A stretch of DNA of 64,000 nucleotides from assembly GCA_043755815.1 (NCBI GenBank), contig JAYUSF010000220.1:14361-78360 (forward strand), written 5' to 3'. Below the pieces are notes generated by a model. It made no database searches, was not told the DNA's origin, and saw only the letters and a list, made by a program, of their open reading frames with translations. The stretch is from Verrucomicrobiota bacterium (GTDB lineage Bacteria; Verrucomicrobiota; Verrucomicrobiia; Limisphaerales; UBA9464). The translations under genes and the position numbers were made by a program. Below are positions 42,001 through 45,000 of this stretch, one piece after another (position 1 is the first letter of the stretch; each line of letters starts with the position of its first letter).

Positions 42001-45000
42001 GCGGCTCGAGGCAGGGCGCGGGCGGTGAGATCGGAGTCCGGGCCCTGCTGGACAGCATGGATGCCGAGCTCGGCAACAGCCTCTCGCTTAAGAAGTTGAT
42101 TGCGAAACTGTCGAGCCTCGGTTCCGCGCTGCGACTCCTGACCGACCGGTTCGAGGCGCGGCGGCTTTCGGATGACCCGGACCATCCGCTCTACAACCGG
42201 TTTCTGGCCGGACCGTTCGTGATCCTGGGCGGAGCGCCCACGGTGCCGCAGTTGGCCGCGCTCAAAGACCAGGCGGCGCAGTTGGAGGTCAACCGGGCCT
42301 ACCTGCGGCCGTCGCCACGCCTGTGGGTCGGCCTGCCCAGCGAACGCGAGAGGAGCTTCTTAACCCTGCCGCGGCCGTTTGATCCCACCCCGAGCCGGCT
42401 CAAGCCGTTCGTCAGCCAGCTCCGGCTCAATCCCACGGCGGAGATCGGCGGGGTTCAGATTCCGGGTTCGACGGCCCTGATCGAGGAACTGGCCCGCCTC
42501 AGTCAACTGAACCCGGTGGGAAACTTCTTCGATTTCGGCGAACAGGTCACTCTGTCCGTGGCCCTGCTGAACAATCTGCCGCTCTTGGACACGGTGATCG
42601 ATGGGGAGTGGAACCCGCTGCTCTTGCCCGGAGCCCACGCCCTGCTGCGGGTGAACCACGCCGACCGGCCGATGGTGCTCGTGCCAGGGTTTGCGGGCTC
42701 GAAGCTGGAGGTCAACGGCGCGAACGAATGGCTGAGCCTTTCGCTCTTCGAGGAATCCCGCAAGCAGCGGGCACTGTTGGTGAAGCCCGACGGCCAGCCC
42801 CTGTTTGACACGTTCGCTACCGACGCACTGCGCTTCACCCTGGAAACACCGATTAAGAATCTCGGCTCCATCTACGCGGATTGGATCGCTCACCTGACGG
42901 GCGAGTTGGGGATGGTCGAATATGATTTCCTGAAGGACGGGCCCGGTGGTGAGACGATCCGCAAACGCCTGCGGCTCGATGGTCAGCCGATCCTTAATCA
43001 GTCGCCGTCGCCGAACCTGTTCGTCTTTCCCTACGACTGGCGGCTGAACAATCAGCAGGCCGCGGAACAGTTGAAGGACTACGTGCGGCTGGCGCTGGAA
43101 CTGAACCCGGACTCCGACGGCGTTGATCTCGTCGGCCACAGCAACGGCGGCTTGGTGTCGCGGGCGTTCATGCTCCTGCCGGGCCAGCGACCGCTGGTGA
43201 AACGGTTCATCACGGTGGGCACTCCCTGGCTGGGCGCGCCCAAGGTGATGGCCGGGCTCCGAACCGGCGACATGAACGAAACGAAGATCAACATCATCAC
43301 GCCCATCGGCGCGGTGCAGCAGATGCTTCAGTTCGCGCCCGGTGCCCACCAGTTGCTGCCGACCAAAGAGTATTTCCAACTCGGCTTCCGTCCGCTCGTC
43401 GAGGACGGCTTCGACCTGAACACCAACGGCCTGCCCAACGAATCGTTCACGTTCGATGGTTACATGGACGCGGTGGCGAAGCATTTCCTCCGGGAACCGG
43501 CCGTGAAGGCGGCCACGAACATTCTGCGGCAGGAGTTCCGGTTTGAGGATCTGCCCGGCGGCGAACACCCAGCCCGGGAAAACGCCAACCGCTTTTACGC
43601 GCAGCGCATCTCCGACCACCGGCTGGACGCGGCCGATGTGGAGATGCACCACATCGTCGGCCTCGGCACGTCGCCGGACACCATCGGCCAGATTCGCGTG
43701 CGCGGACGGCTGGTCTCGCAGCCGGCGCGGACCAACGTGGTAGCGAGTGTCGCCCGGGTGGCGTCGTTCGAGACCGAGCAGGTGCGCGACGGCGCGGATC
43801 TGCTCATCAGCCCGGGTGATGGCCAACTGGCGGTCAATCCGACCAACCAGTATCGGCTGAACGAGGAGATCGAGGTCCGATATGTCGCCGGCGACGGCAC
43901 GGTGCCCATCGGCAGCCTCGCTCGAGGACGCGGCTCAAACCTAGATTTCAACGCGCCCGGAGCCCGGCTGTATCCGCTAGTGGGCGGCTTTGACGACGAC
44001 CTCACCGGGCACAACCCGATGCTGAACACCCCCGCCTTCCTGGACCTGTTCGCGGCCATCTACTCGGGCCGGAAGGTTGAGGAGATTGCGCTGGCCCTGC
44101 CCGAGCCGGCAGGTTTTGCCGAAGGCAGTCTGGGTTCCATCACAGTGACCGCCACGCCGCCGCCCGGCACGACGGGTGTGATTAGCCATGTGGTTGATTT
44201 CGGCGACGGCAGCGTGGATCTGCGCCGGGTTGCCGACGGCACCGCCGTGACGGTGCCTCATCGCTATCGGCAGAGCGGCACCTACCTGGTCACTGTGGGC
44301 GCGGCGACGGACAACGGTGTCAGCGGACTCACCAGCCAGCAGGTTGTGGTGGCCAATGTGCCACCCACGGTGGAGATCGAAGGGGGCGACCTCCCGGTGG
44401 ACCGGGGCGATACCCGCATCCTGACTGCCCGGGTGACCGATCCGGGCCTGGATGATCGCCACGATTTCCGATGGACGCTGCCGGGGGGAGTGGTGAGCGG
44501 GCAAAACCAGTTTGCCGTGCCCGTGACCTTCGACGAACCCGGAACCCAGATTGTCACGGTGCGGGTCATCGATTCAGACGGTGCCGAAGCCACGAGTTCG
44601 GTGACGGTGACGGTGGGGCCGGATCCCACGGGCCTGGCCGGGGCGAATTTCGGCCCGGATTCGGCAAGGTCGTCCCTGCGCATCCGCCGGGCCGCGCTTG
44701 ATGGCTTTGAGGGCGGGCATCCCGAATTCATTGTCCGGGTCAACGGGCACGCGGCCGGCACCTTCGACACGATCGGCCTGGCCGTGCGGCAGGAGGGCGT
44801 AACTGCCGGTGTGCGGTCCCTCTTGGGCGGGGTGTTCGACCGGATGCCCGCCCTCACAACCCTAGGCAATGCCTTTTACGAACGATTGATCCTGCCCAGC
44901 GTGGCGAGGTTCCTGGGCCGCGCCGCGCAGGATACGGACTACGCCCGGGCGTTGCGCGAACTGCCGGACGAACTGCTGGGAATTGACTTTGCGGCGACCC

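Follow-up and report, generated by a model that had tools for sequence, protein, structure and literature searches.

An LCAT/LPLA2-type lipase module within a conserved, tail-swapping giant protein of Verrucomicrobiota

The characterised lipases and acyltransferases of Pfam family PF02450 are eukaryotic. Enzymes of this family, such as LCAT and PDAT, act at interfaces and are able to acylate molecules besides water. Human LPLA2 (group XV phospholipase A2; structure 4X90) and LCAT (4XWG and 5BV7) present their conserved blocks in the order PG..G..LE, PYDWR, HS.G, G.PW.G, GDGTV and a C-terminal His. On the bacterial side, Tle4 (PA1510 of Pseudomonas aeruginosa; structure 4R1D) belongs to the same structural superfamily and is a lipase-family effector delivered by a type VI secretion system (T6SS) and directed at membranes outside the producer (PMC4832377). 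Here we analyse a domain with the LPLA2/LCAT blocks that lies inside a protein of 4,098 amino acids (aa), encoded in a 64-kb stretch of DNA from a Verrucomicrobiota bacterium (contig JAYUSF010000220.1, positions 14,361 to 78,360). The whole stretch of 64,000 nucleotides, with a G+C content of 66.7%, is referred to below as the window, and the protein as the lipase giant.

Judged by its sequence, the module is a member of the prokaryotic LCAT/LPLA2/PDAT branch of PF02450, fixed within a Sec-exported giant of Verrucomicrobiota, and it is apparently an active, catalytically competent serine alpha/beta-hydrolase. We think that it may serve as the extracytoplasmic phospholipase A or acyltransferase module of a polymorphic-toxin-like giant that has a foreign membrane as its target, and we give this statement, taken as a whole, a probability of about 0.55. 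The enzyme family is already known, and its bacterial members carry generic labels in databases. What we did not find described in full-text searches is an LCAT/LPLA2-type lipase as a fixed module of a protein of ~4,100-4,500 residues, occurring from Verrucomicrobiae to Opitutae, always paired with a second giant and provided with exchangeable tails. Literature searches on LCAT-like bacterial phospholipases, on PF02450, on Verrucomicrobia together with LCAT and on Tle4 together with LCAT gave no description of the giant family.

Identity and putative triad of the lipase module

The gene, the domain, its motifs and its putative catalytic residues are located as follows, all motifs being in the frame of the giant.

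36060-48383, + strand: open reading frame (ORF) of the lipase giant, with its first ATG at 36087; 36087..48383 encodes 4,098 aa
42630..44070, + strand, aa 2182-2661: alpha/beta-hydrolase domain of the LCAT/LPLA2 superfamily (Pfam, AlphaFold2, Foldseek and profile alignment)
42669-42710, + strand: motif PMVLVPGFAGSKLE
43029-43046, + strand: motif PYDWRL
43134-43151, + strand: motif GHSNGG, the nucleophile elbow
43140..43142, + strand: putative nucleophile Ser2352, in GHSNGG; S165 of LPLA2; invariant in 20 giants
43218-43244, + strand: motif GTPWLGAPK
43887-43907, + strand: motif AGDGTVP
43893..43895, + strand: putative catalytic Asp2603, in AGDGTVP; GDGTV block of LPLA2; invariant in 20 giants
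44004-44024, + strand: motif TGHNPML
44010..44012, + strand: putative catalytic His2642, in TGHNPML; C-terminal EH of LPLA2; invariant in 20 giants

A preliminary description of this DNA had proposed a complete LCAT-type motif set within a protein of 4,098 residues, and this part of it stands. Each of the six motifs occurs once, in the proposed order and place and in a single frame, which is far beyond chance; the codon at 43140-43142, named there as that of the nucleophile, is indeed a Ser codon (AGC), and the length of the protein is correct when it is counted from the ATG at 36087. Membership of the LCAT family, also proposed there, was confirmed by hmmscan, in which PF02450 was the best family (E=2.2e-16; 60.6 bits, the gathering score being 21), while PGAP1, Palm_thioest, DUF676 and Abhydrolase_1 scored far lower for the same segment. 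The PF02450 match covers directly only profile positions 86-210 of 392. The segment also contains the family-specific VPGFAGSKLE, which corresponds to the PG..G..LE block, as well as PYDWRL. In a phmmer search of PDB sequences, human LCAT was the best match (4e-7, 32 bits), with LPLA2 at 6e-4.

The AlphaFold2 model of the segment, built on 37 sequences, reached a predicted local distance difference test score (pLDDT) of 78.9 and a predicted template modelling score of 0.83. Compared with the PDB by Foldseek, it found LPLA2 or LCAT at ranks 1-5, as expected from the proposed family and with no other family as best match. The values were 1.2e-12 for LPLA2 (target-normalised template modelling score 0.67), 1.3e-10 for LCAT and 1.6e-10 for Tle4, the target-normalised scores for LPLA2 and LCAT being 0.64-0.67; ordinary bacterial lipases came next, at only ~1e-5. 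Moreover, a profile of bacterial relatives searched against the PDB matched LPLA2 at 4.9e-18 over residues 5-377, and Tle4 at 6.5e-17. Since the PF02450, PDB sequence, Foldseek and LPLA2 profile results agree, the identification of the domain as LCAT/LPLA2-type is secure.

In the profile alignment to LPLA2, the Ser column corresponds to S165, because the chain of the S165A mutant has Ala there, and the GDGTV block and the C-terminal His are aligned as well. The modelled Ser is placed between strand 165-170 and helix 172-182, as in a nucleophile elbow, the modelled Asp comes after strand 406-419 and the modelled His after strand 446-451, all three with pLDDT above 90. Thus, alignment to LPLA2, invariance and secondary-structure placement in the model agree on the intact-looking Ser-Asp-His triad that had been suggested from the motifs. 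Two insertions, at segment residues 304-313 and 369-401, were modelled with low confidence. No Cys is present between aa 1623 and aa 3224, and the whole lipase segment is Cys-free.

The same preliminary description had called the family best known from eukaryotes and its presence inside a bacterial giant unusual. The domain is not a eukaryote-like rarity: it is one of a large radiation of prokaryotic homologues, and many Verrucomicrobiota share the conserved giant architecture. A phmmer search of 1.84 billion cluster representatives (50% identity) returned 4,782 matches at E<=1e-3, 850 of them at E<=1e-10, and all the source-named clusters among the 4,782 are bacterial. A word-index search gave 83 homologues with PF02450, none of them named as eukaryotic, of 350-860 aa and 24-33% identical, which come from Patescibacteria, Chloroflexota, Planctomycetota and Actinomycetota and are often fused to Ig, cadherin or FN3 domains. 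In bit scores, the giants reach up to 712 and non-giant prokaryotic relatives 133, against 32 for human LCAT, and the G+C content at third codon positions (GC3) of the lipase segment is 0.84, the same as in the host gene. Bacterial PDAT/LCAT homologues had been noted earlier, mostly in small-genome uncultured bacteria (PMC6686919), and a PF02450 protein has been seen in a vgrG island of Pantoea (PMC3942780).

A family of giants with a constant body and exchanged tails

The top phmmer matches include ~30 representatives of 3,400-4,555 aa that hold the domain at about aa 2,100-3,000. Those with a named source are all Verrucomicrobiota (Verrucomicrobiae, Verrucomicrobiales, Opitutales or Puniceicoccaceae), and their database labels are generic, such as 'PKD domain-containing protein', 'Ig-like domain-containing protein' or 'pimeloyl-ACP methyl ester carboxylesterase'. 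In our alignment, the window protein is colinear over aa 1 to ~3700 with 19 giants of 3,950-4,555 aa, and the identity of the domain among these 20 proteins is 31-66%. Besides Ser2352, Asp2603 and His2642, the residues Y-D-W-R 2316-2319, H2351 and G2354 are invariant in 20/20 giants, as are the P and G of the PG..GS block. When the protein is divided into stretches of 50 aa, those of the lipase core (aa 2301-2450 and 2601-2650) rank with the best conserved. An invariant triad within a conserved core is the pattern that an active enzyme would be expected to leave.

The related loci are numbered L001 to L004 below. A scan of GTDB representative genomes gave the ortholog L001, from Verrucomicrobia bacterium UBA6176, which is 56-61% identical to the window protein over aa 13-3770. 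The ortholog L002 (assembly GCA_965283655.1) has two frame changes, at ~6612-6630 and ~9806-9827, and is split into three called genes; one of the changes interrupts the lipase domain, past the PG..GS block and ahead of YDWR. They could be an assembly error or the sign of a pseudogene.

Outside the lipase module, the following parts of the giant were recognised.

36087..36155, + strand: putative signal peptide MIRSLFHRLLATCLIGLSSVSAA, Sec-type, read from the sequence
38133..38438, + strand, aa 683-784: Big_5 (bacterial Ig-like) domain, Pfam E=9e-15
44094..44615, + strand, aa 2670-2843: two PKD domains, Pfam PKD_4 at 7e-13, in two stretches
45564..47066, + strand, aa ~3160-3660: best-conserved region of the family apart from the lipase, from alignment conservation
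47187..48380, + strand, aa ~3701-4098: tail of the window protein, class B, with motifs NPGR and E..HEL..R

The giant has a mass of ~430 kDa. Neither an internal transmembrane segment nor a C-terminal anchor was found in it, and no membrane or cell-wall anchor is recognisable; the label of surface protein would follow from the Sec-type signal peptide and the Ig-like domains. Of the regions that had been proposed to flank the lipase, the PKD part is supported by Pfam, while the propeller-like part upstream of the module is not: for five sub-segments of the giant, Pfam returned neither a propeller nor an LVIVD match at E<=5, and aa 2846-3720 remained blank. Searched against PDB sequences, the first 2,188 aa and the last 1,447 aa gave one weak Ig-like match and otherwise nothing, and a search of NCBIfam gave nothing meaningful. 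With Pfam, the giant showed neither a carbohydrate-binding domain nor one of a carbohydrate-active enzyme.

The conserved block at aa ~3160-3660 carries the invariant motifs EQG(S/T)G..W, SD.D(Y/F), F..R and GDDP.GD.G.GR..L.LK...E. Its predicted fold combines a mixed alpha/beta part with long helices, at a pLDDT of ~90 over model residues 70-560. The block has no Pfam match and no significant fold match in PDB or BFVD; for the model of aa 3100-3720, the best Foldseek values were E 0.94 in PDB and 0.077 in BFVD. A likeness of aa 3100-3720 to the translocation domain of botulinum toxin was considered and discarded, its values (E ~1.5, probability 0.06) not being evidence. The family thus holds, besides the lipase, a well-modelled and highly conserved domain of 500 residues without a fold relative in these two databases. 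This could be a novel domain, perhaps an enzyme or a device for translocation.

Past aa ~3700, the family divides into three classes of tail that show no BLAST similarity to each other.

Tail class A, 480-757 aa: P0091, P0094, P0095, P0096, P0098, P0099 and P0100
Tail class B, about 390-420 aa: P0101, P0106, P0107 and P0126
Tail class C, 283-374 aa: P0110, P0113, P0115, P0116, P0117, P0118 and P0123

The hidden Markov model of the class-B tails matches the tail of the window protein with 36.9 bits, and NPGR and E..HEL..R are common to both. The closest relatives by body (P0091, L001 and L002) carry class-A tails, unlike the class-B tail of the window protein, and class-B tails are otherwise found on distantly related members of the family. 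At aa ~3700, exactly where homology to the closest relatives stops, GC3 falls from ~0.85 to 0.58-0.67, the value for the whole gene being 0.82. Homology and GC3 break at the same point, the mark that exchange of modules also leaves in polymorphic toxins, and acquisition of the window tail by recombinational tail exchange fits these data.

Some features of the tails are of interest in themselves. Class-A tails (P0091, P0094-P0100 and L001, 14654-16882) have a conserved pair of motifs, '...HSHG..DG...' and '...C..LN', which could be a His/Cys dyad; with Pfam, this class gave only a sub-threshold match to DUF6345, and P0099 ends in a weak PepSY-like match. The class-B tail alignment brought up no homologue in a word-index search. 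In the last ~230 aa of the class-C tails, the residues YRG ... S(T/A)(S/A) ... E.E are invariant. This R/S/E.E pattern recalls the arrangement in R-S-E ADP-ribosyltransferase toxins, a likeness that has no support from Pfam or PDB profiles and that we do not claim.

Operon, neighbourhood and possible function

The lipase giant lies in a conserved operon, in which it would be co-transcribed with a small gene upstream and a second giant downstream.

35449..36090, + strand: first gene of the operon, a 213-aa PEP-CTERM protein with a signal peptide and the tail …VPEPSVMALLAAGLGWTLIRRNRA, read from the sequence
48380..59359, + strand: second giant, 3,659 aa, with 8 CarboxypepD_reg domains, Big_5, Big_9/cadherin-like domains and TSP3 repeats

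The stop of the 213-aa ORF overlaps the ATG of the lipase giant (ATGA), so that the two are translationally coupled, and the ATG of the second giant overlaps the stop of the lipase giant in the same way (ATGA, 4 bp), an overlap of 4 bp that is also present in L004. The second giant is syntenic in L001-L004, with 43-49% identity, and these loci span Verrucomicrobiae and Opitutae. PEP-CTERM ORFs are found at other loci too: a homologous one upstream of the L002 ortholog, a different one ahead of the giant in L004, and one that is joined to P0110 at its N-terminus. A second small PEP-CTERM ORF of the window lies at 26013-26963; both end in VPEP/PVPEP, followed by a hydrophobic stretch and an Arg-rich end. 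The window showed no exosortase gene.

Two sulfatase genes that run the other way, 32371-35133 (-) and 29031-30818 (-), lie a short distance upstream of the operon, and one of the sulfatases is a 920-aa fusion with a GDSL lipase/acylhydrolase (esterase) domain. The neighbourhood also includes a phosphodiesterase and other secreted giants with Ig domains. One of the large proteins of the window (20811-25982, + strand, 1,723 aa) combines Big_5, a lactonase/SGL-like beta-propeller and Big_9/cadherin-like domains with weak matches to di-haem cytochrome c peroxidase and cytochrome c; a comparable protein of 2,142 aa (Big_5, PKD, RoxA-like cytochrome c, PA14 and fn3) adjoins the giant in the Puniceicoccaceae locus L003. 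The sequence '...(A)FYRV...' occurs in the last 15 residues of the 1,723-aa protein and of the 3,659-aa second giant, and a 418-aa protein (26960-28216) ends in '...QFYS...'; these ends may be a common C-terminal domain or sorting motif of the secreted proteins of the organism. Downstream, a 386-aa protein with a signal peptide and without a Pfam match (59481-60641) lies between the second giant and a third large secreted protein with Big_5 and CarboxypepD_reg domains (61609-63999, + strand), which begins ~2.2 kb past the second giant and runs off the window.

The data show the identity of the domain, the conservation of its triad, the conserved architecture and synteny of the giant and the swapping of its tails; a lipid substrate, an extracellular location, a target and a toxin role are what we infer for the module. 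Once exported, the complex would be kept at a cell surface by Ig-like, PKD and cadherin-like parts, and the lipase module would dock onto a lipid bilayer. The Ser2352-Asp2603-His2642 triad could then react with a glycerophospholipid to give an acyl-enzyme at Ser2352, from which water (phospholipase A) or a different hydroxyl acceptor (transacylase) would take up the acyl chain. The binding and acyl-transfer steps are proposed because LCAT, LPLA2, PDAT and Tle-type enzymes act in this manner. A foreign membrane, be it of a competitor, a prey or a eukaryotic host, would be the most likely target because swappable tails are attached to a constant body and because the module is related to Tle4, and the lipase would in that case provide the membrane-damaging or membrane-opening step.

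Several points weigh against such a role. The lid Cys pair of LCAT and LPLA2 is absent, as the segment is Cys-free, and interfacial regulation must therefore differ; the lid disulfide is a trait of the eukaryotic enzymes and not of PF02450 as a whole, and it is not found here. For none of the tail classes did Pfam or PDB give a known toxin domain, and classes B and C are blank in both. The gene after the giant is always the second giant and no immunity-like gene is seen, unlike in classical antibacterial polymorphic toxins. Genes for a type I secretion system, for a T6SS (VgrG, PAAR), and immunity-like or Tli genes were not found in the 64-kb window, which thus has no dedicated secretion system to account for passage through the outer membrane. 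The sulfatase-rich neighbourhood would equally fit nutrient acquisition.

Nutrient acquisition is the alternative that survives best, although we regard it as rather unlikely. The giant would then be a surface scaffold of a polymer-degrading Verrucomicrobium, and its esterase or lipase would hydrolyse environmental algal or plant lipids, lipoproteins or acylated polysaccharides for uptake, with no cell being harmed. The two flanking sulfatases, one of them fused to the GDSL esterase, the phosphodiesterase and the other secreted Ig-domain giants are all consistent with this, as is the fact that many non-giant homologues are secreted multidomain proteins of 600-1,500 aa with Ig, FN3 or cadherin-like modules. 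However, a phylum-wide body of 4,100 aa with swappable tails is an unusual design for a degradative enzyme, the giant shows none of the carbohydrate-directed domains searched for, and the nearest characterised bacterial relative of the module is the toxin effector Tle4.

Action on the producer's own envelope seems to us more doubtful still. In this case, the module would bind, deacylate or transacylate the outer-membrane lipids of the producer, and so tether the anchor-less giant, remodel the membrane, release vesicles or acylate the giant or its partner. The lack of a recognisable membrane or cell-wall anchor in the giant, the PEP-CTERM surface-sorting protein with which the operon begins, and the interfacial action and non-water acyl acceptors of the LCAT family speak for it. 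Against it, our literature searches gave no precedent, the polymorphic tails would be left unexplained, and an uncontrolled phospholipase would harm the producer's membrane, with no inhibitor or immunity gene seen.

Two further explanations are very unlikely: a degenerate pseudo-enzyme kept as a spacer or binding module, which could be suspected from the direct PF02450 match to the central third of the profile and from the two low-confidence modelled insertions, conflicts with the invariance of Ser, Asp, His, YDWR and PG..GS in 20 sequences down to 31% identity and with the full-length alignment of the family profile with LPLA2; and a recent capture of a eukaryotic LCAT/PDAT gene for a sterol- or diacylglycerol-acylating enzyme, in spite of the eukaryotic origin of the characterised PF02450 members and of human LCAT as the best PDB sequence match, is rejected in view of the scores of 133-712 bits for prokaryotic homologues against 32 for human LCAT, the bacterial origin of all source-named clusters, the GC3 shared with the host gene and the fixed position of the domain across Verrucomicrobiae and Opitutae.

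Returning to the toxin-like giant with a foreign membrane as target, we think that the reading could be extended, but only tentatively, and we would be inclined to doubt that all four parts of the extension hold together. The three-gene operon might be an unrecognised Sec-dependent giant weapon present throughout Verrucomicrobiota. The cadherin/Ig-like partner and the N-terminal half of the lipase giant would bind the target cell, the LCAT-like phospholipase would breach or prime its membrane, the helical domain at aa ~3160-3660 would act as the translocation device, and the swappable tail would be the delivered effector. Such a device would function like MARTX or the large clostridial toxins while being built from unrelated parts, and it would need no immunity gene because its targets would be eukaryotes or non-kin cells.

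If the lipase acts on membranes, it would offer a first way into the function of these very large genes in a phylum that is abundant but poorly studied, and it would provide Tle4-like lipases with a delivery context other than the T6SS.

Comparison with known systems

With LPLA2 and LCAT, the module has in common PF02450 and the same order of blocks. At ~16% identity, it is ~100 residues longer and has extra insertions, including in the model a long beta-hairpin (segment residues 351-419) with a disordered tip. The elbow of the module is GHSNGG and not AHSMG or GHSLG, no Cys is available for a lid disulfide, and the module is a part of a 4,098-aa bacterial protein and not a free glycoprotein.

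The closest non-giant relatives are other bacterial PF02450 proteins, 26-33% identical, with E down to 3e-33 and the same motif set. They are labelled 'lipase/acyltransferase domain-containing', 'alpha/beta fold hydrolase' or 'pimeloyl-ACP methyl ester carboxylesterase', measure 350-2,500 aa, and have no 4,000-aa body, partner giant or tail polymorphism.

Three described toxin systems resemble the giant in part, and it is none of them, since the defining features of each are missing. Tle4 also contains PG..G..L, HSMGG and a GD.TVP block, with YNW where the module has YDWR, and both by Foldseek and by profile LPLA2 is a slightly better match to the module than Tle4. It is a stand-alone protein of ~570 aa that is carried by the T6SS spike and has Tli4 as its immunity protein, whereas the giant has a Sec signal peptide; a Tle4-type T6SS effector was rejected, as there are no T6SS or Tli genes in the window.

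The comparison with the alpha/beta-hydrolase (ABH) phospholipase module of MARTX toxins, drawn in the preliminary description, stands as a concept and an analogy only. MARTX toxins with an ABH phospholipase A1 are likewise very large exported proteins with an internal alpha/beta-hydrolase lipase module. However, the lipase of the giant belongs to a different alpha/beta-hydrolase family, it is constant among the giants while only the C-terminal tail varies, and export would rely on the Sec signal peptide. The giant was not accepted as a MARTX toxin, as Pfam searches of it and its neighbours turned up neither the N- and C-terminal glycine-rich RTX/MARTX repeats nor a cysteine protease domain, nor genes for type I secretion.

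A classical polymorphic toxin was also rejected, because no immunity gene lies downstream of the tail, where the conserved giant partner is encoded instead. Compared with polymorphic toxins of the Rhs, CdiA and MafB type, the giant lacks an adjacent immunity gene and Rhs/YD, haemagglutinin or PT-domain repeats, and none of its tails is recognisable as a known toxin. What the giants and these toxins do have in common is a constant body, unrelated C-terminal modules that are exchanged upon it, and a compositional break at the junction.

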